Virus record (IMG/VR): IMGVR_UViG_3300042520_002918
Length of the DNA stretch: 64,000 bases
Strand: one strand, 5' to 3'
Origin: an uncultured virus (IMG/VR IMGVR_UViG_3300042520_002918)
Taxonomy: Duplodnaviria; Heunggongvirae; Uroviricota; Caudoviricetes
The notes beneath the pieces were generated by a model. That model made no database searches and was not told where the DNA came from. It saw only the letters and a list, made by a program, of their open reading frames with translations. This document shows, piece after piece, positions 25,731 to 63,005 of this stretch (the stretch's first letter is position 1; each line of letters starts with the position of its first letter). The position numbers and the translations under genes are program-made.

Positions 25731-26186
25731 ATGACACGATTTGTTGGAACGCCCCTACGCGGCATTGAGTTTTCTAGTCCAAGCGACGAATCATTCTCTA
25801 CGCGCGTAAATCTTGATGCACATGCAAGAATTCGCATTGATGCTGGCGGTCGCCTTACGTGGTCTTCTGGTTCAGCGGCTGGAGATACCAACCTCTACCG
25901 CACAAGTGCAAACACCCTCTATACGGATGACGTATTTCAGGCCGCCCTTGGGCTCGTGACACTGACGACAAATGGGACGCCTACTTCGGAACTTCCTAAC
26001 GGAGCCATCGCAGTAGATACAACAAATAACAAGTTCTTTTTCCGCTCTAACTCAACATGGACTGAAGTAAGCGGCGGAGCAGGTTTGTTATCTGGAGACG
26101 TAGATGGTGGTATTATTTCTCCAGAAATATATGAAGCGGAAGTTACAAATTATGTAATCGTTGGCTTTGACGGAGGTGCGGTGTAA
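25731..26186 (+). CDS. Fibre-associated structural protein
   Basis: DTNLYR, NGAIAVDTTNNKFFFR; located between fibre genes. Confidence 0.65.
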   Translation: MTRFVGTPLRGIEFSSPSDESFSTRVNLDAHARIRIDAGGRLTWSSGSAAGDTNLYRTSANTLYTDDVFQAALGLVTLTTNGTPTSELPNGAIAVDTTNNKFFFRSNSTWTEVSGGAGLLSGDVDGGIISPEIYEAEVTNYVIVGFDGGAV

Positions 26187-29100
26187 TGGCTGGAGCAAGG
26201 ATTCAGGTCAAGCGCGGTACAGCCTCATCTTGGACAAGCAATAACCCTGTTCTTTACGCGGGTGAAATCGGTTTTGAAACCGACACGAAAAAAGTCAAAA
26301 TTGGCGACGGCACTACAGCATGGAATTCGCTTTCGTATACGGTTATCCCGATTTCCCTTAGTTCACTGAATGACCTTAGTGATGTAACCATCACCAGCGT
26401 CAGCGGTGGGGATTTTTTGCGTTACGACAGTTCCGCTTCCGTCTGGATTAACGACGCCGTAAACCTTTCAACCGACACCGTCGGCAACTACATGGTCGAT
26501 GTGGCTGGCGGCACTGGTGTCACCGTCACTCACACCCCAGGCGAAGGTTCAACTGCCTCTATTGCAATCGGGCAAGATGTGGGCACTTCCGCATCAGTTT
26601 CGTTTGGTCAACTTACGGTAAATGGTCAAACAAATATTGCCGGTCATGTAATTCCAAGCACAACAGAAGCATACGACCTTGGCTCTGCTTCGGCGCGATT
26701 CAGGGATATCTATTTGTCTGGCACAAGCATCAATCTTGGTGGGGCAGAAATCACGAGTGATGGAACATCAATCACTTTCTCTGGTGGCTTGACGGTTGAC
26801 TCGCTATCAGATATCGATTCCGTTCAGTTTGATACAACAGCGAGTGTGGCACCTGCTGCTGGAATGCTTACATGGGATTCTGTTGAGGGAACACTCAATC
26901 TTGGCTTGACAGCAGATAAACACATACATCTTGGAGAGGAATCGGTATTCCGTGTTCGCAACACAACTGGTTCGCAAATTCAAAAAGGCACTGCGCTTTA
27001 CGCTTCCGGGGTAGAGGAAGACGGAAAAGTTGAAGTATTTCCATATACTGCAGATGGAACTATCCGTGAAGAAAGTTTTATTGGACTTGCAACTGAATCA
27101 ATAACCAATGGCGGCAGTGGATTTGTTCAAACTTTTGGTTTTGTAAGAGGACTTGACACAAGAGGAAATTCTTCAACAGCAATCAGCGTTGGCGATGAAA
27201 CATGGGCTGTTGGAGACCTTCTCTATGTTCACCCAACAGTCGCTGGCAAACTGACAAACGTTGCTCCGCGTCATTCGGTTCTTGTTGCAACTCTAGTTGT
27301 CAGGAATGCATCAACTGGCGTTTTGCTTGTAAGGCCATCTGTAGGTGAGCACATTCAAGATTTGCATGATGTTCTTTTGACATCTCCAACAGACGGTCAA
27401 TTCCTGCGCTATAACAGCGCCTCAACCGTATGGGTAAACGACACAATCAACCTCGGGACTGACACCGTAGGAAACTATGTTTCAGATGTTGTCGCTGGCA
27501 CTGGTGTAACCGTTACACACACGCCGGCAGAGGGCTCAAGCCCAACAATCGCAATCGGTCAGTCTGTAGCAACTAGCGCATCGGTTACTTTCGCAAAACT
27601 TGACACAACTGGCGACATCACTGTTGGCGGAAACCTGACAGTAAACGGAACCACAACCACCCTAAACACAGAGACACTGGCGATTGAGGACAACATTGTT
27701 GTTCTGAATAGCAATGTCACTGGCTCACCAACAGAAAATGCTGGAATTGAAGTTGAGCGCGGAACTTCAGCAAATGTTCTAATTCGCTGGAACGAAACAA
27801 ACGACCAATGGGAGTTCACGAACGACGGCACCACATACGGTGACATCGCTGCACTTGGGGCTATTGAACTCGGAACAGACACGACTGGCAACTATGTCAA
27901 TGATTTGACCGCTGGAACGGGCGTTACTGTAACGCACACTCCTGGCGAAGGTTCTTCTCCAACGGTAGCAATCGGACAGGATGTCGGAACATCGTCATCT
28001 GTGACATTCGCGCACGTCTCTGCGCCAGTAACGGGGAACGTAACGGGTAATGTCACCGGAAATCTGACTGGAAATGCTGACACAGCAACCTCGCTGCAGA
28101 CTTCGCGCGCAATTTCTCTCTCGGGCGATTTGTCTGGCTCTGCATCCTTCAACGGAACTGCTGATGTCACGATTACCGCAACGGTTCAGCCAAACTCTGT
28201 AGCCCTCGGTACCGATACAACCGGCAATTACGTCAACGACATTGTTGCTGGCTCTGCTATCACGGTTACCCATACACCCGGTGAGGGCTCTAGCGCATCG
28301 GTTGCCCTGAATGCATCATTGAACGACCTCAACGATGTGGTTGTTGGGACACCAGAAGAATTCCAGGCCCTTGCCTACGACGGTTCTGGCTGGGTTCCGA
28401 CATACACACCGGTTGTCTCGTATGTCCGCAATGCGGAAGCAACGACACTTGCATCAGGCACAGTTGTATACCTCTTTGGTGGAAACGGCGACCATGCTTC
28501 GGTCAAGCGCGCCGATAATGCGCTGGAGACAACGTCTTCCAAGACTGTCGGCGTTATGGGTACGGCAGTTGCGTCGAACCAAAACGGTCCAGTCATCACA
28601 CGCGGATATGTCGATGGAATTAACCTTTCTGCCTACAGCGTCGGCGACATCCTGTGGCTTGGAACAAATGGTGGTGTCACCACCACTAAGCCTTCTGCTC
28701 CGCTGAACACAGTGTTCATCGGCGTTGTCGTTCGTGCAACAAACAACGGAATCATCTATGTTGCAGTTCAGAACGGATATGAACTGAATGAACTGCATGA
28801 TGTCAAGACCAACGGCAAGGTTGACAAAGATGTCTTGATGTGGAACAGCGCATCATCTGTCTGGATTAACGACCAAATTAACCTCGGCACCGACACCGTC
28901 GGCAACTACATGGTTGATGTGACCGCTGGAACAGGAATCACAATCAGCCACACTCCAAGCGAAGGCTCAACGGCGACAATATCCATTCCTCAAAGTGTTG
29001 CAACATCAGCATCGCCAACATTCGCTGTCCTTACACTCACTGGTCAGCCGACTGAAACAACCCACGCAGTTACAAAGTCGTACGCCGACTCAATAGCAGC

Positions 29101-31627: not shown

Positions 31628-32119
31628 ATGGCAAGGGCACCAAAGGACAGTGGCGGCAAAAAGCCAACGACACCGTCGTCCCCAACAGGGACGGTCGTTC
31701 CCGTTGTCAATAACACAAACCCGAACAACGCACAGCAGGTAAGCGTTGCTTTCACACCGTCTTCTTACATTGGCAAGGGAACAGTTACATATACGGCGAC
31801 CTCAAGCCCTGGCGGTTTGACTGCGACTGGCTCATCTTCACCGATAACCGTATCTGGCTTAACTTCTGGAACTTCTTACACATTTACGGTTGTCGCAAAT
31901 ACAAATTATGGCGTTCCATCAGATGTTTCAGCGGCATCACCATCGGTAACTCCTCCGTATTTTCCGCCTTTTTTCCCTCCGTTTTTCCCACCGTTCTTCC
32001 CGCCCTTTTTCCCCCCATACTTCCCGCCGTTCTTCCCACCTTTCTTCCCGCCATTCTTCCCACCTTTCTTCCCGCCATATTTCCCACCCTGCTTTAATCC
32101 AAAATTGGGCCCGTGCTGA
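31628..32119 (+). CDS. Fibronectin type III domain protein with C-terminal (PP[F/Y/C]F)12 repeat
   Basis: VSVAFTP...YTATSSPGG.TATGSSSPITVSGLTSGTSYTFTVVA (FN3); ends PPCFNPKLGPC. Confidence 0.9.
   Translation: MARAPKDSGGKKPTTPSSPTGTVVPVVNNTNPNNAQQVSVAFTPSSYIGKGTVTYTATSSPGGLTATGSSSPITVSGLTSGTSYTFTVVANTNYGVPSDVSAASPSVTPPYFPPFFPPFFPPFFPPFFPPYFPPFFPPFFPPFFPPFFPPYFPPCFNPKLGPC
31952..32095 (+). repeat. 12 x 12-bp coding tandem repeat encoding PPYF(PPFF)4PPYF(PPFF)4PPYF PPCF
   Basis: Read directly from DNA; synonymous Pro/Phe codons vary between units. Confidence 0.95.
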
Positions 32120-32165
32120 TTAGTTAAATCCAGAACTCCAATGCAGTGGCTGTTAGGGTTATGAC

Positions 32166-32804
32166 ATGAGCACGGACGTTACAGCAGAAAGCCCATGGAA
32201 AATCAAGCCGGGACATTTCGGAAACAGTTCATCAAATATTGTTGTCATTGACAATTTTATTGAATTGGAAGATTTGAAACTTATTCAGGAGTTTTGCCCA
32301 ACCATTAATCAGTGGAACAATTCTGCTGAAAGCGTGTACGCCGAAGATGGAACTTGTTTATATAACGCAGATTATTGGAACGACAGACAGTGCAGTAGCG
32401 AGATATTAGAACGGCTCAACAAACAGGTATGGATACTTGTTGACAAATATATTGACAAAATGCAGAAAACGATTGAAGACTTTTACAAAGTGAAAGTCAG
32501 CAAACGCCCTCCCGTAATAATGAAATGGCGTCCTGGAATTGAGCAAAAACCTCACGCGGACAAACAATTGAATGACGGAAGACCAAATGCATTTGTTGAC
32601 TATGACCTCAACTCTCTGTTTTATTACAACGACGATTTTGAAGGCGGAGATTTGTTTTATCCACAACACGACCTCACGGTAAGGCCAAAGCCAGGCTTGG
32701 CCGTCATGCACCCCGGTGATGTCAATTATCTGCATGGGGTAACAATGATTACAAAAGGATTTAGGTATACGACTCCATCGTTCTATACGGTCGTTGGCTC
32801 ATAA
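32166..32804 (+). CDS. Prolyl 4-hydroxylase-like Fe(II)/2OG dioxygenase
   Basis: KPHADK (HxD), YYNDDFEGGDLFY, YLHGV....G.RYT. Confidence 0.88.
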   Translation: MSTDVTAESPWKIKPGHFGNSSSNIVVIDNFIELEDLKLIQEFCPTINQWNNSAESVYAEDGTCLYNADYWNDRQCSSEILERLNKQVWILVDKYIDKMQKTIEDFYKVKVSKRPPVIMKWRPGIEQKPHADKQLNDGRPNAFVDYDLNSLFYYNDDFEGGDLFYPQHDLTVRPKPGLAVMHPGDVNYLHGVTMITKGFRYTTPSFYTVVGS

Positions 32805-33324
32805 TCCTATTTTCCTTTTTTGCCTTTTCTTTACAGTAGATGATTGTCCAAATATCATCAGTAAACAGAGACCCAATAAATTGAGCATGCTCGCCATGCA
32901 GGAGCATCAAGCGAGTCAACCCATCTTTATCAAAAGAACTGTTGAGCGGGTATCCATGGATTGCTCCGTCAACGTAATCATACTTACCTTGCGCCACAGT
33001 CTCATAAAAAGAATGCTCTGATGACTCTCCCCACAATGAATTGAAGTCAACAAGAATTTTGTCAAAGCCCACATGTATCAAACGTTCTGCGGTTTCTGGC
33101 CCGCTATTGCCAAACCCAACAGACATAATTACATCAGAACGGTCTGAAAGTTCTTTGATTGTCCCAACATCAATGGCGCCCACAGAGCGAGCCCTGTCAA
33201 TTGTTTTTTGTGAACGACCATGGGAGGCCCATATAACCGAATGCCCAGACGAAAGCAATGATGACGCAAGCGATGACCCCATTACTCCAAGAGAAACAAG
33301 GCCGACGACACGGTTTATTCCCAT
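32761..33324 (-). CDS. NAD(P)-binding protein of the 6-phosphogluconate/3-hydroxyisobutyrate dehydrogenase family (N-terminal domain only)
   Basis: VGLVSLGVMGSSLA, SDVIMSV, VDFNS, YVDGAI.G.P; own leaderless -10 (TATCAT). Confidence 0.75.
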   Translation of the reverse strand: MGINRVVGLVSLGVMGSSLASSLLSSGHSVIWASHGRSQKTIDRARSVGAIDVGTIKELSDRSDVIMSVGFGNSGPETAERLIHVGFDKILVDFNSLWGESSEHSFYETVAQGKYDYVDGAIHGYPLNSSFDKDGLTRLMLLHGEHAQFIGSLFTDDIWTIIYCKEKAKKENRIMSQRPYRTMESYT

Positions 33325-33349
33325 ATAGTTATGATAGTCTGAATTTGTG
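33322..33349. promoter_or_regulatory. Overlapping divergent leaderless promoters
   Basis: + strand TGaTAGTCT-6 nt-GTG(33347); - strand TATCAT-6 nt-ATG(33324). Confidence 0.6.
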
Positions 33350-34366
33350 AGTGTAAATAAACCAAAAGATTTTGATACATCAACTGCGTGGCACGACTAC
33401 ACAGTTACCGAAATTATTGCTAGACACTTCTGGGTTGGGGAAACAACTGGATATCAAGCCGTAGCCAATGCATGGGCACAAATAGCAGAAGGAAAAATAG
33501 ACGAACTTGGTTTGGATGTGGGTTTTGTTGAGTCCGTTGGCTTCCTTCATGCTTTAAATACTTTTGGGAAAAACATTCATATCAACGGATATGGGCATAA
33601 AACAAATGGCGGACGTAAATCATATATTGACTATCGATTACTTGAGCAGTACACCTCTAGCGAAAATCATGGTGATTTTGTAGATAAGGGTTATTCCGTT
33701 TGTTTAGGCGGAGCACCAAAAGATGCGATTAGCGACTACAAATCAAAATATGCAAAAGAAATGCTTTTAAAGACGGGCACCAAAAAAAAGTCTTATTTGT
33801 TTTCAACAAAAGAATATCTTGTATCGGAGTCAATTGTCTCTATTCTGTGCAACGACTTCATGGAGTCATTGGCAGATTCAATGAACACGGCATATGGACT
33901 TAGATTTGTTCATGCTTTTACATGGTCGTCGCAGCACCATTGGAAGATGGAGGCGCCATGGTGCAATGAGCCAATCACTTCGCCGGGCACAGTTATAGAA
34001 ATGGTTGCCATAGAAGACCATCATCCAATTTCTGGAGTATTACAAATAGCGGCAGGTTCGCATGCGCTGGACCTTGACCAAAACATCATTGGGGACCTAA
34101 CCTCCAATGAAAAATACAACGAATATATTCACTACTGTCACAGGTTGGCAAATGCAGATGTTGGGAAAATATATCAACACATGCCCATGGAAGGCGACGC
34201 AATCGCATGGCAAGGGAAGTCATTGTATTGCGATGCGATACCAAACAACGAAAAATCACTAACGAGAAACGCGCTGTTTGGCATATTTGAAAAAGTCAAT
34301 ATTGAGGACAATAAAGACTCTTTGCTACCCATCCCAAATAGGAATAAGTTGTTTCTGATTAAGTGA
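33347..34366 (+). CDS. PhyH-like dioxygenase-fold protein, apparently lacking canonical metal ligands
   Basis: GVLQIAAGSH and EGDAIAWQGK..Y resemble PhyH motifs, but no clear HxD or distal His. Confidence 0.5.
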   Translation: MSVNKPKDFDTSTAWHDYTVTEIIARHFWVGETTGYQAVANAWAQIAEGKIDELGLDVGFVESVGFLHALNTFGKNIHINGYGHKTNGGRKSYIDYRLLEQYTSSENHGDFVDKGYSVCLGGAPKDAISDYKSKYAKEMLLKTGTKKKSYLFSTKEYLVSESIVSILCNDFMESLADSMNTAYGLRFVHAFTWSSQHHWKMEAPWCNEPITSPGTVIEMVAIEDHHPISGVLQIAAGSHALDLDQNIIGDLTSNEKYNEYIHYCHRLANADVGKIYQHMPMEGDAIAWQGKSLYCDAIPNNEKSLTRNALFGIFEKVNIEDNKDSLLPIPNRNKLFLIK

Positions 34367-35230
34367 TTACATCCCGAGCATGTAATCGATATCGTTTTTG
34401 ATTATTCTCAGGGATTCGTTAATTCCCTTTTGTTGCAACTTTGTTGGATACGGGGCGTTTGTCCACTCAAAAAATTCTTTTTCTCCCAATTCTTGTTTGA
34501 GTTTTTCCAAACCCTCACCCTGCCACCAAGGGAATGGCTCGCCATGCGGTGTTCGTTCACCGAGAAGAAATCCATTGTGATAGCGCAAATATTGCGTTCC
34601 TGTCCTATCAATCAAAAACTTTGTAAAATTACCAGTCAAATTGGACATTCCCCTTTTGTCATCTGGCTTTGACGCCTTTACTTTTGCCCAAGGAATAAAT
34701 TCGTCAGTATAGGGGGTTCCGTTTTCTTGAAAATCTGCCGAATGACAACCAGTCAAATAAAACCACAATTCATGAATGTCCTGAATCTTTTGAGCATTTG
34801 GAACATAGTCTTCGCTGTACGAGTGCTTGTCGTATCTACCGTTTGTCAACTCAGTGAATTCGTATGTTGAGCCGAAATGGGTCTTGGCATAATCCTGTGC
34901 TATTTGACCTGGGGTCATGCTCAGCGCATTTTTTTCAGCATAAGAAGCGAGTCCGCCCTGGAACTGTTCGTATCCGTGACACACAAAGTCGTCAACAACC
35001 ACAGCCAAAATTTTAAAATCTGGGTTTCCCTTATACATTTGATGAAGTTGCTCAATTACGCCGTGTTGAGGAATATTCCCGCAGCCTGCGGCGACATTGA
35101 AAAGCAGGGTTACCTTACCCCTTGCGTCACCCAAAACGTCACTGTTTTTCCCGTCGGCTGACTTGATTTTTATGTCGTAAATAGACAATGGCAGGGTTTC
35201 GATTGCCCCCGAAATAGGCGCTATACTCAT
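34367..35230 (-). CDS. Glutathione peroxidase-like thioredoxin-fold protein (Cys type)
   Basis: SIYDIKI, RGKVTLLFNVAAGCG, GNFTKFLIDRTG; promoter TTGACC-16 nt-TAGAAT-6 nt-ATG on the - strand. Confidence 0.8.
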   Translation of the reverse strand: MSIAPISGAIETLPLSIYDIKIKSADGKNSDVLGDARGKVTLLFNVAAGCGNIPQHGVIEQLHQMYKGNPDFKILAVVVDDFVCHGYEQFQGGLASYAEKNALSMTPGQIAQDYAKTHFGSTYEFTELTNGRYDKHSYSEDYVPNAQKIQDIHELWFYLTGCHSADFQENGTPYTDEFIPWAKVKASKPDDKRGMSNLTGNFTKFLIDRTGTQYLRYHNGFLLGERTPHGEPFPWWQGEGLEKLKQELGEKEFFEWTNAPYPTKLQQKGINESLRIIKNDIDYMLGM

Positions 35231-35279
35231 AAGAACATTCTACTATCACGACATCCCAGGTCAAGAAAGGTCCAATACA

Positions 35280-35969
35280 ATGAACTCAGCCATAAATGTT
35301 TCGTGCGAATATCTTGGAGACCCTCGCTTCGCGATTATGGTCTACAGAAATATGCTCCCCAAAGAACTGCGTTTGATAGAGCGCTTGGAGGAGACGATAG
35401 GGACGAGCACAACACCCCCGTACATGTGGATGGAGGCCCTTGTCGGACACCAGGAAAAGATGCCCGACTACAGGGACTGTTTTGACTGCAAAATTAGCGA
35501 ACAACTTGCGAACCAGGCGCCAGGCGAGTTCTTGGAAATAAAGGCCATTTGGTCAGACACAATCGAAAGACTCACGCCGTGCTTGCGTCATTATGAGTCA
35601 ATGTACAACGTAAAAATGGAATGGATGGAAGCAATTAATTACGTCAAGTACGGACCAAAACAACACTTTCAAACTCACACCGACCACGGATTTTCTTACA
35701 CATGCACGATATCGTCCATCATGTATCTAAACGATGATTATGAAGGTGGAGAACTGTTCTTCCCATATTTTGACTTGAAGTTCAAGCCAGAAGCAGGAGA
35801 CATTGTTTTCTTCCCATCGACATACATTTTCGCTCACGCAGCACTTCCAGTTCAGAGCGGAGTGAAATATTCTGCCGTCACAATGTTTGACTACAACGAC
35901 AAGAACCACAAGCAGGTTCAGTCTTATTCTCCAGTTGCGGCAACACGTGGGGTGAGCACATCACAGTGA
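35280..35969 (+). CDS. Prolyl 4-hydroxylase-like Fe(II)/2OG dioxygenase (Lys-type 2OG ligand)
   Basis: THTD, YLNDDYEGGELFF, AHAALPVQSGVKY. Confidence 0.9.
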   Translation: MNSAINVSCEYLGDPRFAIMVYRNMLPKELRLIERLEETIGTSTTPPYMWMEALVGHQEKMPDYRDCFDCKISEQLANQAPGEFLEIKAIWSDTIERLTPCLRHYESMYNVKMEWMEAINYVKYGPKQHFQTHTDHGFSYTCTISSIMYLNDDYEGGELFFPYFDLKFKPEAGDIVFFPSTYIFAHAALPVQSGVKYSAVTMFDYNDKNHKQVQSYSPVAATRGVSTSQ

Positions 35970-36673
35970 CAAATGTTCAGTTTGTAAAAACGACACAAAA
36001 CCCGCCAGAAATTAGACAGTCGCGAATCAAGCGAGACTGGATGGATGAGACCTACAAAAAGCATGCTTATCAATGCATGCCAATGTCTGTCGCGAATGTT
36101 TTAGGTTGGGAACTGGTGCTGAGTGAGGATGTTGTTGTCCAGTGGGATGGCGGCAACTCAGTCCCCAAAATATTGTCTGGCGAAAAAACATCAAGCGGTT
36201 TTACACAAGTCCACTGCTCAATAATTGGAATGGTTTCTTTTGCAATGGGCTGGGTCGTGAGAACAGAAAAAAATTACAGTACTTGGTTTTCTGGTTCGCC
36301 AAACTATTTGAGAAGTGACGCACAGGCACTTTCAGCAACTGTTCCTACATTTTGGTGGCCAGACGAGGTTCAAATGAACTGGAAAATTAATGTCATTGGC
36401 GCGCCTGTCACATTCAAGGCCGGTGAGCCAATTTGCTTCTTTAACATATACGACAACAGGGTTATGACGGATGCGACCGTTTCGGTATCAAATTTATGGG
36501 ATGACAAAGAACTTATGGAACAAAGAATGAAATATGGACAACTAAAGAGCGACAACAATAATGAACGTCCATGGACATGGACAAAAGGCATAAAGACAGG
36601 TCTTGACGCTGATGGCAATACTATTGGGCCAACATTCACAGGACTTCCTGTAATTTCTGTTCCAAATCAATAA
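35966..36673 (+). CDS. DUF6065-like protein
   Basis: RDWMD.T..KHAYQCMP...AN..GW, SGSPNY, WWP...MNWKI, F.AGEPICF. Confidence 0.75.
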   Translation: MTNVQFVKTTQNPPEIRQSRIKRDWMDETYKKHAYQCMPMSVANVLGWELVLSEDVVVQWDGGNSVPKILSGEKTSSGFTQVHCSIIGMVSFAMGWVVRTEKNYSTWFSGSPNYLRSDAQALSATVPTFWWPDEVQMNWKINVIGAPVTFKAGEPICFFNIYDNRVMTDATVSVSNLWDDKELMEQRMKYGQLKSDNNNERPWTWTKGIKTGLDADGNTIGPTFTGLPVISVPNQ

Positions 36674-36689
36674 TGTTATAATTTGCCTT

Positions 36690-37721
36690 ATGGACGATAG
36701 ATACTTTGGTTATTATCCAACAATTGATGACCAAGCAGTCAAGGAAATCATGGCTATGGACATGGTCAAACTTGGTGGCGGTGTAATCGCATTTCCAAAT
36801 GCCTTCAAGGTAAATCAAGAACAATTACTTCCATGGATTGACAAAGAAGGGAAGCATGCGCATGAGCAAAGATGGAAATTTGACTACGACCTAGAAGGAA
36901 ATAAATATGCCGTAAACGAAGACGGCAATAAATTCTCCATAGAGCAGATGAACGAAGTGCCGGTGAGAGTGCTTCAGGTTGTCAACGAGAACACCGAACA
37001 AAATATGATTGATTTCTTTCGATATCTGGAAGATTCAATTTATAAATGTGTACTGAAATACATACACGAATTTCCAATGGTTTTGCCAACTCTTTGGTGG
37101 AGGACTAGAGGGCATGCTTTGAGATACTCCAAGGGCAACTACTTGGGAGTTCACAATGACAACGACACAAATTTTAGAGCCGAAAAAGGTAAGAAGTACA
37201 TACCGAAGGGACAATTGGGTGCACGTCAGACAATTGCAATCATGGCTTATTTCAACGATTGCGTCGATGAGGGAACGGTTGGCGAGAACCAGTATTCAGG
37301 CGGCGAATTATTCTTTCCTTATTTGGGGGTTGAGTATCAGGCCAAAGCAGGAGACATAGTTGTGTTTCCATGTAATTTCATTGCGACTCATGGCGTTCGC
37401 ACTGTCACCGAAGGAAATCGGTACGGATATTTAACTTTTTACGCTCAAGGAAGCAGTGACCCCAATGTGCTCGTGGAAGTATTCGACGTTGATACGGTAA
37501 AGGCGTGGTGCGAGCCGCATTGGTTAGAGCCATTATACGAAGATTATAAAAAGTACTGTGGCATTGAGGAGTTTGGTAAATCCGAGGAGGAGTTAAGCGG
37601 TAAGCCAAATCCCCTTTTCCAAAATAGGTCGCTAGAAGGGGAGGATGGCCTGAAGCAGGCGTACAGGCACTCAGACGTATTTGATGCCAACAATAAACGA
37701 GGCAAGGTTCAGTCGCTATAG
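36690..37721 (+). CDS. P4H-like Fe(II)/2OG dioxygenase
   Basis: GVHNDND, YSGGELFF, FPCN...THGVRTV..G.RY; leaderless TGtTATAAT-7 nt-ATG. Confidence 0.87.
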   Translation: MDDRYFGYYPTIDDQAVKEIMAMDMVKLGGGVIAFPNAFKVNQEQLLPWIDKEGKHAHEQRWKFDYDLEGNKYAVNEDGNKFSIEQMNEVPVRVLQVVNENTEQNMIDFFRYLEDSIYKCVLKYIHEFPMVLPTLWWRTRGHALRYSKGNYLGVHNDNDTNFRAEKGKKYIPKGQLGARQTIAIMAYFNDCVDEGTVGENQYSGGELFFPYLGVEYQAKAGDIVVFPCNFIATHGVRTVTEGNRYGYLTFYAQGSSDPNVLVEVFDVDTVKAWCEPHWLEPLYEDYKKYCGIEEFGKSEEELSGKPNPLFQNRSLEGEDGLKQAYRHSDVFDANNKRGKVQSL

Positions 37722-37802
37722 GCGTCGCCACCTTTGCCTTTTTTTGAGTAGCAGTGCTATTATTGAATCAACAACGGTCAAGACGCGGCTAAAAGGAGAC
37801 CA

Positions 37803-38051
37803 ATGAAACTCAACACAAATATTGACGTAGCGACACAAAAGCGCCTTGTGGAAGAGGCAATTGCAGCGCAGGAAACAGAAGTATTTGGCGTACTGCTTCG
37901 CTACGGGGTAGACGTTGACACCTTTGACGAAGCCACTTTTTCTGAGTCTTTCGCCGAGAACCAGACAGATGTTCAGCAATGGAAACTGGACGTAAAGAAA
38001 AAACTTGAAACGATTGCGTCCCTCAAATCACGTCTAGAAAAACTTGGGTAA
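37803..38051 (+). CDS. Small acidic protein ('GVD' paralogue 1)
   Basis: SD AAAGGAGA; promoter TTGCCT-18 nt-TATTAT (37734-37763). Confidence 0.75.
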   Translation: MKLNTNIDVATQKRLVEEAIAAQETEVFGVLLRYGVDVDTFDEATFSESFAENQTDVQQWKLDVKKKLETIASLKSRLEKLG

Positions 38052-38054
38052 TCA

Positions 38055-38270
38055 ATGAACCTCTCAGAAGCGCAACTTGCCAAGGCAAAACAAGAAGCAA
38101 AAAAACTTCTTGAGCACTCAATCGGCGTCTTGTGCATGTCGCTTGGCGTCGACGTATCGACAATTGATGATTCATACGACCACGATTTGCCAGAGGGGCA
38201 TTCGGAATATGCTGCTCATGAATCGCTGAAGCGTCAAGTAGCCAATTACGTTTTGATTTCTGACTCTTAG
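38055..38270 (+). CDS. Small protein ('GVD' paralogue 2)
   Basis: GVLCMSLGVDVSTID resembles GVLLRYGVDVDTFD in the previous gene. Confidence 0.7.
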   Translation: MNLSEAQLAKAKQEAKKLLEHSIGVLCMSLGVDVSTIDDSYDHDLPEGHSEYAAHESLKRQVANYVLISDS

Positions 38271-38272
38271 AC

Positions 38273-38461
38273 ATGATTCCAAAGCCAGTTGTTCCACTTC
38301 ACCTAGATGAGGCAAAGGAAGAAAAGCCGCGCATGCTGAGGTATAAGGATTATGAGAACAATGTTGCTCAATGGAACCCAGACACAAGGCAGTGGGAATT
38401 TAAAAACGGTCAAATGATGAATTGCGATATCACTGACCGATTTTTAGCGAAAGAGCAGTAA
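38273..38461 (+). CDS. Small hypothetical protein
   Basis: 62-aa ORF in tight operon spacing. Confidence 0.6.
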   Translation: MIPKPVVPLHLDEAKEEKPRMLRYKDYENNVAQWNPDTRQWEFKNGQMMNCDITDRFLAKEQ

Positions 38462-38465
38462 AGAT

Positions 38466-38768
38466 ATGCCAAGGTCGTGTGCTGCCAATTCAGCAGAAAA
38501 ACTTTTTGACGCAGATAAGCATATTGTGGATTTGTGGCAAGACATCGCTGAAATTCTTTTTGTTACCGGTCTCGACCCTGCCAACTTTGAAAGTTACGAA
38601 ATTGGTCAAATTATCACTGCCCTAAGAGAAACTTTTTCCACAAAAGATTCTGGATTTGGAAGAGACCCAGCGTATCCATTTATTTATCGCAATTACAGTT
38701 TCTTTATACCGAAACTTAGAAATGCTTTTTTCTATTTGCAAGTATCTAAATACGGGAAAGAACTATGA
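38466..38768 (+). CDS. Small protein (possible 'GLD' paralogue 3)
   Basis: EILFVTGLDPANFE; ATGA overlap with the next gene. Confidence 0.65.
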   Translation: MPRSCAANSAEKLFDADKHIVDLWQDIAEILFVTGLDPANFESYEIGQIITALRETFSTKDSGFGRDPAYPFIYRNYSFFIPKLRNAFFYLQVSKYGKEL

Positions 38769-39511
38769 AACCAGAAGTCCTTTTCGCCGGAATGGTAAGT
38801 ACACAACTTTCTTCGTCTGGCACGTCGCTGGTCTCCAATGAATTTAAAACAAACATGGAAGACTGGTCAACCAAGTGCTGGAACACGATGGCCGAGGCAA
38901 GTGTTGACTTGAGCCATAACGCTGTGGGTTTGTCCACCGTGTCAATGCAGTGGCGAGTTTCAAAAGACATGACTGATGAATTTTGGGTTGGCGCGATAAT
39001 TCCCCAAATGGCAATAGAGGATTTTTTAATTCGCACCAAGCAACCAACATCAATACTGTTTGTTGGGGGACTTAGCAGTTCGGTGTCTCGTTTTCTTTTG
39101 GCGCCAGAAAATGTTTTTGACGGTTTCAAAAATGCAAATATAAATTTTGTGAACGATGTCGGCCTTTTCATGTATGAGAAAAATCTAAAAAACGTTTACG
39201 AGCACACCTCCTTTGGGTACTCGGTGTACGACAAGTCAGAACTTATTTCTGGAATCGATGAACAATTTGAAATGATTGCAGTTCAATCCTGGGATGTGGC
39301 GTTTGATATGGAGTATCTCGATTCGTTGGTCAACGCTTTGGCTCCGGGCGGGACGCTTGTTATTTCCGCAACAAACGATGCATCAAATATGTACTCGTCC
39401 TCATACACTTGGCACCCGTATTACCAGTTCCATGAAAATCTCAAAGGCTTGTCGGGAACCTCGTATCATTTTCCGCAATTTTACGGGGTTACGGTTTTTG
39501 TAAAGAATTAG
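38765..39511 (+). CDS. Divergent class I methyltransferase-fold protein
   Basis: PTSILFVGG, EQFEMIAV, NALAPGGTLVI. Confidence 0.55.
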   Translation: MKPEVLFAGMVSTQLSSSGTSLVSNEFKTNMEDWSTKCWNTMAEASVDLSHNAVGLSTVSMQWRVSKDMTDEFWVGAIIPQMAIEDFLIRTKQPTSILFVGGLSSSVSRFLLAPENVFDGFKNANINFVNDVGLFMYEKNLKNVYEHTSFGYSVYDKSELISGIDEQFEMIAVQSWDVAFDMEYLDSLVNALAPGGTLVISATNDASNMYSSSYTWHPYYQFHENLKGLSGTSYHFPQFYGVTVFVKN

Positions 39512-39550
39512 ATTCTTGCTTGTGGGTTTGTGCCCATATAGTATTTGTGT

Positions 39551-40462
39551 ATGGAAACTTCAATAAATTACGGCATGGGCATTGTCTGTTTCCCAAATTC
39601 TATAGAAGTTGACCAAGACCTGGTTATTCCATATTTTTCATCGCTCAAAGAGAAGGCAATTAAAGACGATTACACCATTGTTCATGAGGATGGACAAGAG
39701 CCTTATGCGATAAACAGAAGCGGCCACAGATACGAAATTGAAGACATAAAAAAGAGCGCAAGTCACATCATGGACTTCATCAACGAAGATAGTCCGAAAG
39801 AGTTGGTTGAATTTTTTAATGAATGTGAAAAAACCATCTATGAACATCTTTTGATGTACATAGAAATGTACCCGCATGTTCTCCCAAATATATGGTGGAC
39901 GGAAACTGGCCATGTGGCCGCTTATGGCGCAGGCAGCAGCATGGGGACTCACAACGACAACGAAGTGAATTATCAAGTTGGTTTTGAGCCGGATTTACAA
40001 CTTGCTACAAGGCATGTATTGAGTGTGTTGCTGTATTTAAATTCGTCCGTTGGGAGTCAAAAAGAACTAGGCAAATATGAATACAGCGGTGGAGAAATTG
40101 AATTCGTATATGCCAATTCTGTACATCAACCAAAATCTGGCGATTTGCTCATATTCCCATCAAACTACCTTGGCACACATGAAGTGAGGCCATGCCTGAG
40201 TGGGGAGAGATACGTTTACATTTCTTATTTTTCGCATGGCTCAGCCCATATCGAACGAGGCATACAGCCAGGACCAAGTGTCCCGGTTGGCAAGCAAAGC
40301 CAGGTTTGGCTGCCAACTATTGTTGACGATTATGTTTCGTACATTAGTGAAAAGCATTCATCAAGTAAACTAAAGCCATTGATGACTGGGGTTCCAACAA
40401 GAACTCATAGTTCAAGCACTAAAAAATATTTACCGCAAAGCAGGAACATTGTAAATGAATAG
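39551..40462 (+). CDS. P4H-like Fe(II)/2OG dioxygenase
   Basis: GTHNDNE, YSGGEI.F, FPSNYLGTHEVRP...G.RY; promoter TTGCTT-17 nt-TAGTAT-6 nt-ATG. Confidence 0.87.
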   Translation: METSINYGMGIVCFPNSIEVDQDLVIPYFSSLKEKAIKDDYTIVHEDGQEPYAINRSGHRYEIEDIKKSASHIMDFINEDSPKELVEFFNECEKTIYEHLLMYIEMYPHVLPNIWWTETGHVAAYGAGSSMGTHNDNEVNYQVGFEPDLQLATRHVLSVLLYLNSSVGSQKELGKYEYSGGEIEFVYANSVHQPKSGDLLIFPSNYLGTHEVRPCLSGERYVYISYFSHGSAHIERGIQPGPSVPVGKQSQVWLPTIVDDYVSYISEKHSSSKLKPLMTGVPTRTHSSSTKKYLPQSRNIVNE

Positions 40463-41330
40463 CAATTGCTTGATAGAGAACTTGGGCGGTGGCGTAGTTT
40501 TGTTCAAGAACGCAATCTCCCTGGATTGGGACTCGGTATTTGATATTGCCGAGGAACTGGTAGACCTTGATTCGCCATCAATGTACAAGCCGGCAATAGA
40601 CCCAGAAACTGGCGAAAAGATTCTTTCAAACAAAAGCGACTATATCTATTCCGAAGACGCAGCAGGCGACATGCCCCGCAGATGCTCGGTGGCGCACCAA
40701 TCAAATGATGCCGATGTTGTCAACTTGCTTAACGCGCTTGAATCAACAAGAGATGAATGCCTGCTTCATTATTTTTGGGAATATCCGTTGGCCTACAAGG
40801 TTGTGTGGTGGAAAGTTAAGGGGCATTTCGTTTCTTATTCGCCAACAAAGGGCGGACTTTACTTGGGGATTCATAGCGATACGAGTGCCGACTATGCATA
40901 TGGTTTTGACCACCCAAAGCAACAGTTGGCCACAAGAAACAGTGTTTCATGTTTGATTTATCTCAACGATTGCGTTGATACAGAAGAAGAATTAGACGGA
41001 AAAAACTTTACTGGCGGCCACCATCACTTTAATTATTTGAACATAACATACAAGCCACAAAAGGGTGACGTGCTGATGTTTCCTTCCAACTATGTTGCAG
41101 GACACGAAGTGAGAACCGTCACTGGAGGGCACAGGTACTCGTACTTGGGCTGGTATGCGCACGGAACGCCAAATCAGGCAGTTGGAGAATATGTAGTGGA
41201 CCCTTCGGTTAACTCATCGGCCACTAATGTGTACATGCCTTCACTCCGTGAGGATGTTTTGGCTTTTGCCAACAAAAAAGACCCATCTGGCAGTTCTCAC
41301 CTACACACACTCGTATCAAGGATTTGGTAA
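40455..41330 (+). CDS. P4H-like Fe(II)/2OG dioxygenase
   Basis: GIHSD, YLNDC, FPSNYVAGHEVRTV.GG.RY. Confidence 0.87.
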   Translation: MNSNCLIENLGGGVVLFKNAISLDWDSVFDIAEELVDLDSPSMYKPAIDPETGEKILSNKSDYIYSEDAAGDMPRRCSVAHQSNDADVVNLLNALESTRDECLLHYFWEYPLAYKVVWWKVKGHFVSYSPTKGGLYLGIHSDTSADYAYGFDHPKQQLATRNSVSCLIYLNDCVDTEEELDGKNFTGGHHHFNYLNITYKPQKGDVLMFPSNYVAGHEVRTVTGGHRYSYLGWYAHGTPNQAVGEYVVDPSVNSSATNVYMPSLREDVLAFANKKDPSGSSHLHTLVSRIW

Positions 41331-42193
41331 TGAACATCCATCATCACGGCTCAGGAATTGTCCAATTTGGAAACTTGTCTTTGATAAATCAAGATTTATT
41401 TAAAGAGGTAATGAGTGGTATTGAAAAAAATACACTGCCTCAAGGGTACACGGAATCGCCAATATCGAAAGATGTAAAACTAAACAACGGTTTATACGAA
41501 TATTCAGATGAAGACATCCAATCTGCTCCAATAAGGTACAACAATTATCTTTATCAGGACATGCCGAAAGAGCATGTTGATTTCATTCTTTCGTTGGAAA
41601 ATGCCCTTTATCAAAGCATGGTTCAGTATGCTGCGCTATTCCCGGTAGTGATTAATTCAATTCGATGGAGAACAAGAGGTTATTTCATCAGATATGAAGA
41701 GGGTCAAGGAATAGGACCTCACTCGGACTGCGATTTGCCATACGGTGAAGACAACGCAACTCCGCTTTCGTCCTTCCCTATCTGTAATACTGTCACCGCA
41801 GCGGTCATCCTCAATGATGATTATGTTGGAGGAGAGGTCTCTTATGCACCTTGGGGTATTGAATTCAAGCCAAAGGTGGGAGACATTCTCATGTACCCAT
41901 CTTCTTATGCTGGCTGCCACAGCATAAAGCCAGTTATCCAAGGTGTTCGTTATGCGTATCTGTCTTGGTTTGCCCAAGGCAGGAACGAATCAACACCATC
42001 CCCAAGTCAAAAAACATCGGAACTCGATTCAATCAAGTGGGTAAAAAATCTCAGGGAAGATGCATCCAAACTTACGCATGGCAACCTTGAGAATCGACAT
42101 ATTCCAGTCGGTAACGTGTTTGCTTCGCCAGTAAATGTGCCGGACCATTTAGGTGGTGGACATTACTTTGTCATTGGTTTAGATACAAAATAG
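41330..42193 (+). CDS. P4H-like Fe(II)/2OG dioxygenase
   Basis: GPHSD, LNDDYVGGEV, YPSSYAGCHSIKPV..G.RY. Confidence 0.87.
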   Translation: MNIHHHGSGIVQFGNLSLINQDLFKEVMSGIEKNTLPQGYTESPISKDVKLNNGLYEYSDEDIQSAPIRYNNYLYQDMPKEHVDFILSLENALYQSMVQYAALFPVVINSIRWRTRGYFIRYEEGQGIGPHSDCDLPYGEDNATPLSSFPICNTVTAAVILNDDYVGGEVSYAPWGIEFKPKVGDILMYPSSYAGCHSIKPVIQGVRYAYLSWFAQGRNESTPSPSQKTSELDSIKWVKNLREDASKLTHGNLENRHIPVGNVFASPVNVPDHLGGGHYFVIGLDTK

Positions 42194-42200
42194 TTACATT

Positions 42201-43310
42201 GTGAATGTGTCTAAGTTTTCTGTCGGGTTTGCTTCTCAGGACTGGTCCAAAGTTGGAGAACTGCTAATCCCAAATGGATGCACTTGGTATAGGTGTGTGC
42301 TCCCGCTAAAAGAACTTCAAAAGTTTGGACATGGTGCTGTTGTCGGAACTGTTGCATCATCTTCTAGCGGAGAAATAGGCATAGGTATACGAAAGCCACT
42401 TTATTCACAAGAAGGAACGGCAAGTGGACTCAACATAATCGTGTTCAAACTTGCCATGCACATATCCAACTTGACCGCAATTGAAAAAGCAGAGTCAAGC
42501 GGGCAAAAGATTGTTGTAGATATCGATGACTGGTTTGACGGCTTGCCGGAATCAAATAGGGCATTTGAAACTACAAATCCAGAAACAAATAAAGAGAACA
42601 ACAGAGATATCTACTTTTCAGTAATTAATAGAGCCCACGCCCTCATTTGTTCAACTCCATTTCTATATGAGCAATACAAACTCAAATACCCATCGAAGCC
42701 GATATTTATGGTTAGAAATGGAATTGACCTGGGTAGATGGAAGAAGAAAAAGCACTTTTACAAAAAACCGGTTATTGGATGGGTCGGGGCAACTCCATGG
42801 AGGGGCAATGACCTGGAGCAACTAAGTGGCTTTTTTGGAGATTATCTCTTGCGAAATAAGTTGACCTTTCACCATTCGGGCCACATAGACGGCGCGCAAA
42901 AAGCATCTGAACTTATTGGGGCTCCAAGTGATAAGTCAACGACACAAGGAATGATTCCAATACTCAACTTGCCAGAACTTTTTAAGAAAATAGATATCGG
43001 CATTGTTCCCCTGAACAATATTCCGTTCAATCATGCCAAGTCCTACCTGAAGGGCCTTGAGTATGCGGCGGCAGGAATACCTTTTGTTGCTTCTTATTCG
43101 CCGGAATACGAAGTCCTTGCCCAAAGCGGTATTGGGAGAGTAGCCTATTCAGAGTCGGATTGGCTTTACCATTTTGATGAGTTACTGAATCACAATATGC
43201 GAAATGATGAAGCAGAAGTTTCTCAAGAAATACTTAAAGAACAATTCTCTATGGACGTCATTGCAAAAGAATGGGAAAACGTATTCATGAATATTATGGA
43301 CATCAAGTAA
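42201..43310 (+). CDS. GT-B fold glycosyltransferase (GT4-like)
   Basis: GCTWYR, VVDIDD, ICSTPFL, VIGWVG, DIGIVPL...FN.AKS.LKGLEYAAAGIPFVAS. Confidence 0.9.
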   Translation: MNVSKFSVGFASQDWSKVGELLIPNGCTWYRCVLPLKELQKFGHGAVVGTVASSSSGEIGIGIRKPLYSQEGTASGLNIIVFKLAMHISNLTAIEKAESSGQKIVVDIDDWFDGLPESNRAFETTNPETNKENNRDIYFSVINRAHALICSTPFLYEQYKLKYPSKPIFMVRNGIDLGRWKKKKHFYKKPVIGWVGATPWRGNDLEQLSGFFGDYLLRNKLTFHHSGHIDGAQKASELIGAPSDKSTTQGMIPILNLPELFKKIDIGIVPLNNIPFNHAKSYLKGLEYAAAGIPFVASYSPEYEVLAQSGIGRVAYSESDWLYHFDELLNHNMRNDEAEVSQEILKEQFSMDVIAKEWENVFMNIMDIK

Positions 43311-44405
43311 ATGAACAAATTATCCAAAATGAATGTTGGATTTGCATCTCTTGACTGGTCAGTCGTTGACGGCCAGCATGTTCCAAATGGGTGCACTTGG
43401 TATCGGTCCATACTTCCGTCGCAGCAGTTAAATCTTGCTGGCGCTGCATCTGCTTTTGGATTTTTGTCAGTAAAACCAAATGGAGAGTTTGCAATCAAAA
43501 GATTGAATAAAAGTTTTTCTAACAACAACAATATTATTGTGTTGAAAGTTATTATGTCAAAGGAAGTTCTTGAGCGAATTCCAAAGGCACAGTCACGTGG
43601 TCAAAAGATAGTTGTTGACATAGATGACCTTTATGACGAACTGCATTCAACCAATTTGGCATATCAATCCAGTTCGCCAAATTCCAACAAAGATAACAAT
43701 AGAGAAATATACGCAGAGATAATCAAAGTCTCTGATGCGCTAATTTGCTCAACCCCATTTATACGCGATTACTTTTCAAAGAAGTATCCGTCAAAGCCAA
43801 TATTTATGGTTCGCAACGCCATACAGAACAATTCATTTAAGCGCTTAAAAGCGGTTAACAGAGCGCCAGTAATCGGCTGGCTTGGCGCTACACCGTGGCG
43901 GTCAATGGACCTTGAGGTAATGCAACCTTTCTTGGATTCGTACTTGGAAAAAAATAAAATAAAATTTCATCACGCAGGCCACCTGATATGGGCTCCAGCG
44001 GCATACTTGAGGCTTGGCATAAATCCCAAGAACTGCACAGTTAGCGGAATGGTTCCACTGTTTGAAATGCAGGACGCCCACGCAAAATTTGACATCGGTG
44101 TAGTACCGCTAAATGATATTCCGTTTAATAGGGCAAAATCCTTTATCAAAGGCGTTGAGTATGCCGCCTCTGGAATACCTTTTGTTGCTTCTGCTTTGCC
44201 GGAATATGAGTATCTCTCATCGATGGGAGTTGGAAGAATTGCAAAATGCGATGCCGATTGGATAGGTCATTTTGATGAACTTATGAAGTTCAAGGTACGC
44301 GAAGAAGAGTCAAAAAAGATAAACAAGATTATTGAAAAAGAATTTACTATGTCAAAGACTGGACCGGAATGGGTGTCTGTGTTTAAGGAAATAAGTAGTT
44401 TGTAG
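43311..44405 (+). CDS. GT-B fold glycosyltransferase (GT4-like), tandem paralogue
   Basis: Same motif series as the preceding gene (NGCTWYR, VVDIDD, KSFIKGVEYAASGIPFVAS). Confidence 0.9.
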   Translation: MNKLSKMNVGFASLDWSVVDGQHVPNGCTWYRSILPSQQLNLAGAASAFGFLSVKPNGEFAIKRLNKSFSNNNNIIVLKVIMSKEVLERIPKAQSRGQKIVVDIDDLYDELHSTNLAYQSSSPNSNKDNNREIYAEIIKVSDALICSTPFIRDYFSKKYPSKPIFMVRNAIQNNSFKRLKAVNRAPVIGWLGATPWRSMDLEVMQPFLDSYLEKNKIKFHHAGHLIWAPAAYLRLGINPKNCTVSGMVPLFEMQDAHAKFDIGVVPLNDIPFNRAKSFIKGVEYAASGIPFVASALPEYEYLSSMGVGRIAKCDADWIGHFDELMKFKVREEESKKINKIIEKEFTMSKTGPEWVSVFKEISSL

Positions 44406-44445: not shown

Positions 44446-44471
44446 TTTTGCAACATAACTTTGTTGCAAAA
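44446..44471. promoter_or_regulatory. Perfect 10-bp inverted repeat abutting a start codon
   Basis: TTTTGCAACA-taactt-TGTTGCAAAA; the last A is the A of ATG 44471. Confidence 0.5.
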
Positions 44472-62117: not shown

Positions 62118-62129
62118 GATTTAACAACT

Positions 62130-62359: not shown

Positions 62360-62770
62360 ATGATTACAGAAACATCTGGGCTTTTTTACGATGGGGTCGA
62401 GTGTGGGTATAGGTGGATTCCCTCCGAGCAACGCGGCTTGGAAAAGGGCTCTTCTTTGGGTGTCGCAGTTGCGGTGATAATGGGCAATCAGGTAGTGGCA
62501 ACATTCCCAACCTACCCGCCAATTTGGGAAGCCCTAAACGGTGGCAACATTGTTGACGTAACTGAATCTGGCAATCACAATGTTCAAGAAGGACACGCAG
62601 TAATAGAAATTCAAAAAGAAGGCAATACTCAATACGTATTACATATCTCAAGTGAACTTCTTGCTGCCGCGCTAACAAGTGGGGCTACACTTGCAAGGAT
62701 AGAGGCTGACAACTACGCGGTTATGGCTGGATGGGGATACTCAAATGGAAACTTCACAGAACCAACCTGA
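62360..62770 (+). CDS. Fibre-associated protein, paralogous C-terminus to the previous gene
   Basis: AAALTS...GWGYSNGNFTEP versus AAGLSS...GWTYDGTSFHAP. Confidence 0.7.
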   Translation: MITETSGLFYDGVECGYRWIPSEQRGLEKGSSLGVAVAVIMGNQVVATFPTYPPIWEALNGGNIVDVTESGNHNVQEGHAVIEIQKEGNTQYVLHISSELLAAALTSGATLARIEADNYAVMAGWGYSNGNFTEPT

Positions 62771-63002: not shown

Positions 63003-63005
63003 TTT

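Follow-up and report, generated by a model that had tools for sequence, protein, structure and literature searches.

In the genome of an uncultured siphovirus-like phage (IMG/VR record IMGVR_UViG_3300042520_002918; Caudoviricetes), of which we analysed a stretch of 64,000 nucleotides (hereafter the window), a gene encoding an FN3 domain with a tail of Pro-Pro-aromatic-Phe repeats (PP[Y/F]F, hereafter PPFF) is followed by an island that contains six Fe(II)/2-oxoglutarate (2OG) oxygenase genes. Herein we report that this pairing of repeat and oxygenases is real, conserved and apparently undescribed: a literature search, with most subscription journals outside its coverage, returned neither a description of a PPFFPPFF or FPPFFPP repeat nor a bacteriophage pathway of repeat hydroxylation plus tailoring. 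The interpretation that we prefer, namely that the phage hydroxylates and then probably O-methylates the tails of its own appendage proteins, we judge to be evenly poised between right and wrong.

The window covers portal, protease, major head, neck, tail tube, tape measure and Dit genes, and an identical stretch occurs in a 76.6-kb viral contig (L001). The G+C content of the island (32-44 kb) is 0.41-0.44, versus 0.48-0.51 in the preceding fibre region. Its genes are under purifying selection, with non-synonymous diversity (pN) far below synonymous diversity (pS) for all of them in comparison with close relatives (dN/dS 0.02-0.34 where computable). The initial annotation, made from the sequence alone, had recognized six intact oxygenases, and all six indeed match PF13640 (32166 below the curated cut-off) and keep both the HxD...H iron motif known for this enzyme group (PMC9676403, in excerpt) and a basic 2OG-binding residue, which is Arg in five and Lys in 35280. 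Clustering at 38% identity separates them into four subfamilies, O0 (32166), O2 (35280), O1 (36690, 39545 and 40455) and O3 (41324), where the O3 reading frame starts at either 41324 (TTG) or 41330. Subfamily counts were obtained by hidden Markov model searches, and the initial family clustering was taken from a BLAST table that is perhaps incomplete.

Repeat and oxygenase genes are neighbours in both search directions

Relatives of the FN3 protein are encoded in 389 viral stretches. The forward set comprised 80 of these, 79 of them non-self, and the counts use the 60 in which the FN3 domain was mapped and the downstream flank measured 3 kb or more; here, as in all neighbourhood counts below, flanks extended to at most 10 kb. 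An oxygenase gene was found within 5 kb downstream of 37/37 Pro-tailed FN3 anchors versus 3/23 non-Pro anchors, and the contrast was retained after de-duplication at 90% (24/24 vs. 2/22) and at 70% (16/16 vs. 1/16). Since the oxygenase profiles were derived from the same loci, a Pfam scan of the non-Pro anchors was added, covering 111 of 114 listed open reading frames (ORFs; three of the scanned ones from L005), and the 108 ORFs behind 21 non-Pro anchors yielded one oxygenase (L049).

The reverse search started from DUF6065, another gene of the island. Among the best 80 of 555 DUF6065 relatives, 42 non-self loci had an upstream flank of 6 kb or more, and every one of them carried in it either a PPFF gene (38) or an FN3 gene rich in Pro (4); after 95% de-duplication 21/21 did so. 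Pooling of the loci gave 119 distinct PP[F/Y]F tails (counting that of the window), of which 102 had an oxygenase within 5 kb; O0 followed 93, O2 91 and DUF6065 81 of the 119. The link between repeat and oxygenases is strong. The initial annotation had suggested looking for co-occurrence of such repeats with oxygenases and with GT4-type glycosyltransferases across phage genomes, and the first synteny is borne out in both directions, whereas the second is not (see below).

A second repeat and oxygenase pair in the same window

Near the end of the window, a tail hub gene with a repeat of PPVT units is followed by the gene for a 451-aa oxygenase. The inventory of island genes in the initial annotation was otherwise sound, but it overlooked this module (58557-64000) as well as four small ORFs (37803-38768). 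The whole module is complete in L373:1552-7353. A Pro-Val repeat was present upstream of the 451-aa oxygenase in 9/9 loci, two of which come from the phage of the window, two from relatives with PVSPVD units and no PPVT in the hub, and five from loci that encode FN3-(PPV[T/V])n proteins in a different gene order; L005, found independently, adds a further case of a Pro-Val repeat with an oxygenase of the 451-aa type (52% identity). The 451-aa oxygenase followed 0/119 PPFF tails, and O0 and DUF6065 followed 0/6 PPV tails, four of the six having been found via the 451-aa enzyme query. The 451-aa enzyme also retains the prolyl-hydroxylase Arg in register with prolyl 4-hydroxylase (P4H) of B. anthracis. 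Across scaffolds, the type of repeat thus goes with the type of enzyme, and this correspondence, which rests on few distinct phages, is the strongest hint at a functional coupling of the two.

The FN3 protein and its Pro-rich tail

The FN3-PPFF gene begins after a gap of 3 bases behind a gene for an 1812-aa fibre protein, and in most relatives a gene with the same C-terminal knob domain stands immediately 5' of the FN3 gene. Because of this gene order the FN3 protein is probably a fibre add-on. Its likeness to a gp38-like add-on of the T-even fibre is one of gene order only, virion presence and fibre-tip binding being features of the gp38 type. The knob domain itself had no convincing relative in the PDB. 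The initial annotation had described an FN3 domain and 12 Pro-Pro-aromatic-Phe units; domain and repeat are confirmed, and the units are corrected to 11 PP[Y/F]F and one PPCF. The gene draws on all four Pro codons (9/7/5/3), which argues for protein-level constraint on the repeat and makes simple DNA slippage an unlikely source. The dN/dS of the gene versus relative L082 is 0.07.

The PP[Y/F]F repeat contains neither Ser nor Thr, and the protein has a single Cys 3' of the repeat besides that of PPCF and no Thr stalk. Extensins and other hydroxyproline-rich glycoproteins carry a Ser-Pro3-5 repeat, which the repeat of the window does not match. In the relatives L186, L189 and L194 (near 1300, minus strand), an FN3 protein with an extensin-like SPPP repeat is followed by DUF6171 and an O2-type oxygenase, and in L076:5996-7541, L078 and L080 FN3-PPFF genes occur in tandem, with a weak Hint-like domain and a Peptidase_S74 chaperone domain (E 4e-12) as caps. 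A DNA-pattern search for the repeat found at least 121 viral stretches versus 12 stretches on 11 contigs among 185,579 cellular genomes, which makes a cellular origin unlikely; five of these 11 contigs show the phage cassette. The contigs with the cassette (L241, L244, L245/L251, L247 and L248) belong to metagenome-assembled genomes from unrelated groups and are probably binned phage DNA.

Fold and active-site residues of the oxygenases

The fold comparison covers one oxygenase of the six, 32166, for which an AlphaFold2 (AF2) model with a pLDDT of 93.5 was obtained, showing a DSBH fold as in prolyl hydroxylases. Its top five VIA matches are all peptidyl-prolyl hydroxylases (PBCV-1 vCPH, Trichoplax PHD, P3H1, PHD2 and Pseudomonas PPHD; Z 16.1-16.6), followed by PiuC (15.6, a tie at a margin of 1), OGFOD1 (15.4), PhyA (15.1) and PolD (14.8), with AlkB/Tet types and the free-proline hydroxylase at Z of 12.9 or less. 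The best PDB sequence match of 35280 is B. anthracis P4H. In the phage record collection, 32166 had just five matches, all weak.

The initial annotation had called the enzymes P4H-like. According to the excerpted text of PMC4396695, an Arg at the active-site opening (Arg161 in CrP4H, Arg322 in PHD2) is common to all P4Hs and prolyl 3-hydroxylases (P3Hs), and a Tyr three residues before the first iron-binding His (Tyr140 in CrP4H, Tyr310 in PHD2) is present in all P4Hs, with Leu instead in P3Hs (OGFOD1/Tpa1 type). At this His-3 position the six oxygenases carry Gln, Phe, Leu, Met, Leu and Ile, and thus in no case the Tyr. The Arg is in register in 0/6 and is found one residue earlier in the three O1 enzymes, where register refers to the linear motif, checked on B. 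anthracis P4H, and not to structure. The residues at these positions are conserved in a subfamily-specific manner, with Gln/Tyr in O0, Phe/Cys in O2 and, in O1, Leu at His-3 (102/114) together with an Arg one residue out of linear register (103/114). Because Tyr and Arg are common to all P4Hs and are absent here, the island oxygenases fail P4H membership; they may represent enzymes like the prolyl-hydroxylase fold group yet outside the P4Hs, for which another regiochemistry or a Phe/Tyr target is possible.

Points against repeat hydroxylation, and tailoring of other appendage parts

A number of observations speak against the hydroxylation of the PPFF tail. Beyond the window, the P4H Tyr+Arg pair was found in 0/432 distinct motif-matching island oxygenase domains (Tyr 0, Arg 2), which likewise speaks against membership of the P4H family. 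In the fold comparison PiuC and the nucleoside-pathway enzyme PolD trail the prolyl hydroxylases closely, and by sequence profile PiuC ranks first (O0+O2, E 7e-15) and is the only such match for O1. Six enzymes exceed the need of one reaction on a four-residue repeat. No oxygenase was found within 5 kb at 17/119 PPFF tails, several of which are in long tail proteins. On the FN3 tree the trait changes six times, with only two independent pairs on starred branches (sign test p 0.5), so this test is underpowered and the association may reflect shared descent. The second reverse set, the best 80 of 481 O1 relatives, counts in the same direction: among 48 O1-anchored loci, counted without de-duplication, 23 contained an FN3 gene in the 7 kb upstream, and these 23 genes had a Cys-rich tip in 23/23 cases and were Pro-rich in only 12/23. 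Distant O0 homologues (33-38% identity) lie in 3/3 marine phage records behind Gly-rich fibre-type genes with sulfotransferases, with no Pro-rich gene among the same-strand ORFs of these records, and the fibre genes upstream of the oxygenase array of phage Syn9 are also Gly-rich and without a Pro repeat.

As a consequence, the assignment of all six enzymes to the PPFF tail in the initial annotation is not supported, since the 36690-type subfamily also follows Cys-tipped, proline-poor FN3 genes. Relatives that keep the island in the absence of any Pro-rich gene, which the same annotation had named as contrary evidence, are lacking among the 42 close DUF6065 loci, but the distant O0 homologues and the Syn9 array stand behind fibre-type genes with no Pro repeat. 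Oxygenase islands behind fibre genes are therefore general, and the Pro link is specific to the close subfamilies. Some O1 islands hold a PPFF cassette at their opposite end (L444 and L088, on one contig).

The above would be expected if the island tailored different parts of the appendages, namely Cys-rich tips, Thr stalks, attached glycans or a small cofactor, and were simply inherited with the fibre locus, the PPFF tail being an unmodified hydrophobic rod or adhesin. The islands behind non-Pro fibre genes in Syn9 and the three marine phages, the association of O1 with Cys-rich tips, the absent P4H residues, the underpowered tree test and the TauD, AspH, radical SAM, sulfotransferase and GT32 genes that relatives add are all compatible with this explanation. 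However, the close O0/O2/DUF6065 set was not found without a Pro-rich gene (42/42), repeat type matches enzyme type across scaffolds, and the PPFF protein of the window offers one Cys after the repeat besides PPCF and no Thr stalk, and we consider it unlikely.

In L082:16252-19179 and many other loci the islands are two-headed, with the PPFF cassette at one end and an inverted cassette of knob, FN3, stalk, Cys tip and DUF6171 at the other, where the stalk is poly-Thr, poly-Pro, PAPT or PPFF. Elsewhere, sulfotransferase and APS-kinase-like genes stand behind non-Pro fibre genes (L057:11319-12559 and L065:1830-3121), which suggests fibre-tailoring cassettes without oxygenases.

Comparison with known oxygenase systems

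PiuC is a single cellular gene linked to iron uptake, and to our knowledge no repeat gene or array is known beside it. As in O1, PiuC/YbiX (PKHD-type; PDB 9qn0 and 3dkq) has no Tyr at His-3 and an Arg one residue out of register. In the accessible portions of a 2026 survey (PMC13184970), 2OG-Fe(II) oxygenases are described as frequent auxiliary genes of aquatic phages, with proposed roles in DNA repair, nitrogen metabolism and iron uptake, and most marine viral 2OG oxygenases match PiuC. Together with PiuC as top PDB profile match and the peroxidase and dehydrogenase genes of the island, this could indicate a host-directed auxiliary metabolism, either PiuC-like iron uptake or redox, or secondary-metabolite synthesis of the kind proposed for cyanophage arrays, such as organohalogen (small-molecule) products in the case of Syn9 (Iyer 2010, PMC2938197, in excerpt). 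The position of the island behind the repeat gene and the contrast of 37/37 vs. 3/23 would then be left unexplained, and neither a halogenase nor a peptide-synthetase match was found in the island, so that host metabolism appears to us rather improbable.

The Syn9 array (gp41-gp54) resembles the island in its several 2OG dioxygenase families in tandem, its dUTPase-fold, conserved-Cys protein (as given in the same excerpts) and its position directly behind fibre genes. Its gp43 aligns weakly to DUF6065 (E 0.046) and also matches the profile of a DUF6065 sister family. None of the Syn9 oxygenases match the O0-O11 profiles, and the two Trp halogenases and the JmjC (MINA) enzyme ascribed to Syn9 have no such Pfam/NCBIfam match among the island ORFs. 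For some bacterial oxygenase/sulfotransferase operons, tail-collar and collagen-like substrates were predicted (PMC2938197, in excerpt).

The hydroxylation of a viral repeat, as we prefer to read the island, has a counterpart in PBCV-1, whose P4H hydroxylates Pro-Ala-Pro-Lys repeats according to the excerpted part of a review (PMC3634087), and is thus a viral enzyme acting on a viral-type four-residue Pro repeat. Among the VIA matches of the 32166 model, this vCPH (PDB 5c5t) ranks first (Z 16.6, root-mean-square deviation 3.2, 163 aligned). However, it is one enzyme of a eukaryotic virus, whereas the bacteriophage studied here has six divergent enzymes, an aromatic repeat and no P4H Tyr/Arg pair.

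The glycosyltransferases probably belong to a separate glycan module

The two GT-B genes noted in the initial annotation are confirmed by a strong match to phrog_7162 and weak matches to GT4-type models, while the GT4 profile had no match in the PDB. GT4 genes come after only 4/46 islands and are absent from 42/46, the 46 being those with at least 8 kb downstream of DUF6065, and an oxygenase lies within 5 kb upstream at only 9/37 GT4 loci. Next to them one most often finds other genes of sugar or methyl type, as judged by eye from their sequences. In L082/L083 (91% DUF6065 identity), the place of the GT4 pair is taken by a PF11397 gene and by a second knob-FN3 cassette, which is inverted and has a Cys-rich tip. 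We accordingly rejected GT4 as a core member of the island, and the pair probably belongs to a separate glycan module. The GT4 pair is followed by a gene (44471-47164) for a membrane protein of 897 aa that has a probable signal peptide, hydrophobic segments at its C-terminus, and both acidic stretches and stretches rich in Thr/Pro. Relatives of this protein adjoin GT4 in 27/80 GT4 loci, which makes it a candidate substrate of GT4. The pair might receive its sugar from two genes at 1923-4062, remote from the island, of which one is methyltransferase-like and the other encodes an NAD-dependent sugar epimerase.

In a consulted passage on GT60, PF11397 includes the Skp1-hydroxyproline N-acetylglucosamine (GlcNAc) transferase and a polypeptide GlcNAc transferase family. 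The Skp1 PhyA-Gnt1 system (GT60/PF11397), as far as that passage describes it, shares with the islands the logic of a hydroxylase plus a GlcNAc transferase, with a PF11397 gene in 7/46 related islands (on either side of DUF6065); it differs in that the island of the window has no PF11397 gene and its glycosyltransferases are GT-B/GT4. Among 56 distinct Cys-tip cassettes, for which stalk extraction was noisy, PF11397 leans to Thr-rich stalks (7/14 vs. 8/42, p 0.037) and not to Pro-rich stalks (p 0.55), with 5/14 PF11397 cases on nearly Thr-free Pro stalks. After this test, the PF11397 genes of relatives were downgraded as support for hydroxyproline glycosylation.

The full model of the initial annotation comprised canonical prolyl 4-hydroxylation followed by GT4 O-glycosylation of the hydroxyproline, giving an extensin-like tip. 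It draws on a fold nearest to prolyl hydroxylases, on a GT4 pair that is adjacent and under purifying selection, and on the PF11397 genes of some relatives, including those behind nearly Thr-free Pro stalks. Set against these are the missing P4H Tyr/Arg pair, the scarcity of GT4 after islands and of oxygenases before GT4, the usual GT4 neighbours (other sugar genes and the 44471-like membrane protein), and PF11397, which is absent here and in relatives follows Thr-rich stalks. Glycosylation of the repeat by the GT4 pair is thus not sustained, and we regard the model as a whole as improbable. By comparison, excerpts of PMC12619734 and PMC11256854 (citing Freeman 2023) describe mycobacteriophage glycosyltransferases that modify virion proteins, with glycans on the capsid and on tail-tube C-termini; the likeness lies in the phage-encoded glycosyltransferases, and no oxygenase step or Pro-aromatic repeat is mentioned in these excerpts.

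Other genes of the island

The features of the window are listed in Table 1. Further genes named in the initial annotation were recovered, namely two redox genes (NAD_binding_2 and GSHPx matches, both on the minus strand), a degenerate PhyH-like gene (33347), a DUF6065-like gene and a methyltransferase-fold gene, the last with an O-methyltransferase-like Atlas model (template-modelling score, TM, about 0.6; low pLDDT), no Pfam match and only weak PDB profile matches (E 0.12). The O-methyltransferase-like gene occurs in 44/46 islands and is the most conserved non-oxygenase tailoring partner downstream of DUF6065; a sulfotransferase occurs in 20/46, counted on either side of DUF6065. The His ligands of the PhyH-like protein are also absent in L082 and L162, with a dN/dS near 0.10; the gene is thus under purifying selection in close relatives despite the loss, and more distant island copies retain the His residues. 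The four small ORFs had no Pfam, PHROG or NCBIfam match, and ORFs of this loosely related family recur in sets of 2-4 before the methyltransferase in many islands. Promoter-like sites were at chance level (23 vs. 26.6), and a WhiB motif scan gave no match.

The DUF6065 model gave Foldseek matches to dUTPases (best E 8e-5, TM 0.4/0.65). Its alignment has an invariant Cys37, and no match was found in the phage record collection. A dUTPase-fold protein next to oxygenases and a 5-hydroxyuridine-type O-methyltransferase could point to modification of nucleotides or DNA bases, as could Atlas neighbours of the methyltransferase that include clusters named tRNA 5-hydroxyuridine methyltransferase, and the Tet-like and AlkB folds lower in the match lists. 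However, dUTPase motifs as we know them are not visible in the DUF6065 alignment, Tet and AlkB reach Z of 12.9 at most vs. 16.6, DUF6065-like genes also occur behind non-Pro fibre genes without oxygenases (L050 and L053), and the island is located in the fibre region, not among replication genes. Base modification is therefore, in our view, very improbable.

Table 1 Features of the window discussed in the text, with their positions and supporting evidence
Position	Strand	Feature	Evidence
26186..31624	+	Fibre/minor tail protein, 1812 aa, C-terminal knob domain conserved	Mtd_N, minor-tail and fibre PHROGs, alignment
31628..32119	+	FN3-(PP[Y/F]F)11-PPCF protein, 163 aa, candidate substrate	PF00041 E 4.5e-5, just under cut-off
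32166..32804	+	Fe/2OG oxygenase O0; Gln at His-3, Tyr at P4H Arg position	PF13640, motif, AF2 model
32761..33324	-	NAD-binding dehydrogenase-like gene (NAD_binding_2)	PF03446 E 3.5e-7
33347..34366	+	PhyH-like pseudo-enzyme	Both iron-binding His absent
34367..35230	-	Glutathione-peroxidase-like gene (GSHPx)	PF00255 E 6e-6
35280..35969	+	Fe/2OG oxygenase O2; Lys as 2OG ligand, Phe at His-3	PF13640, motif
35966..36673	+	DUF6065, dUTPase-like fold, invariant Cys, related to Syn9 gp43	E 3e-43, model
36690..37721	+	Fe/2OG oxygenase O1; Leu at His-3, Arg shifted by one residue from the P4H register	Only PiuC-type PDB matches
37803..38768	+	Four small ORFs (82, 71, 62 and 100 aa)	Three align loosely among themselves
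38765..39511	+	O-methyltransferase-fold gene	Atlas model
39545..42193	+	Three further oxygenases: 39545 and 40455 (O1), 41324 (O3)	PF13640, motif, clustering
42201..44405	+	Pair of GT4-type glycosyltransferases in tandem; borders the island without being conserved in it	GT4-type models, phrog_7162
58557..62117	+	Tail hub/tip protein, 13 PPxx units (12 PPVT, then PPVS), Cys-rich tip; second candidate substrate	
62360..64000	+	136-aa ORF, DUF6171, 5' part of 451-aa oxygenase	Oxygenase complete in L373

Proposed tailoring of the appendages and its implications

Beyond the anatomy, intact active sites, purifying selection, synteny and fold described above, we infer a virion location, substrate, modified site, order of steps and purpose, in which the island would serve to tailor appendage proteins that the phage itself encodes and that are associated with its fibres. 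The Pro/aromatic tail of the FN3 protein would form an extended rod. With the aid of Fe(II), 2-oxoglutarate and O2, the subfamilies most faithful to the repeat, O0 (32166) and O2 (35280), would hydroxylate Pro and/or Phe/Tyr residues of this tail, not necessarily to canonical trans-4-hydroxyproline. The O-methyltransferase-fold protein would then probably cap the new hydroxyls, with sulfotransferases added in many relatives, while the O1/O3 enzymes probably serve either the PPFF tail or a second, Cys-tipped appendage, which in the window would be the hub tail. The peroxidase and the dehydrogenase may support turnover, and the tailored tail may function in adhesion or shielding.

Because the canonical P4H residues are absent, the chemistry may be new: Pro could be hydroxylated at C3 or twice, or Phe/Tyr could be the hydroxylated residues, with O-methylation or sulfation as the subsequent step. 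In a tentative generalization, which we hold to be possible but doubtful, aquatic phages would use a modular substrate-enzyme code, in which fibre and hub proteins exchange Pro-repeat tails (PP[Y/F]F and PPV[T/V]), each tail travelling with oxygenases of its own, bringing new peptide chemistry and an adhesive or shielding tip. Such a code, if true, would give a large class of phage 2OG oxygenases, now counted as metabolic, its substrate. The cassette provides a concrete, synthesizable candidate substrate for orphan phage oxygenases, and the same genome contains a built-in specificity control, as PPFF and PPVT each come with their own enzymes. If hydroxylation of the repeat is true, many phage oxygenase genes would shift from host metabolism to virion maturation, and the islands would be a possible source of new peptide hydroxylases for Pro/aromatic sequences.

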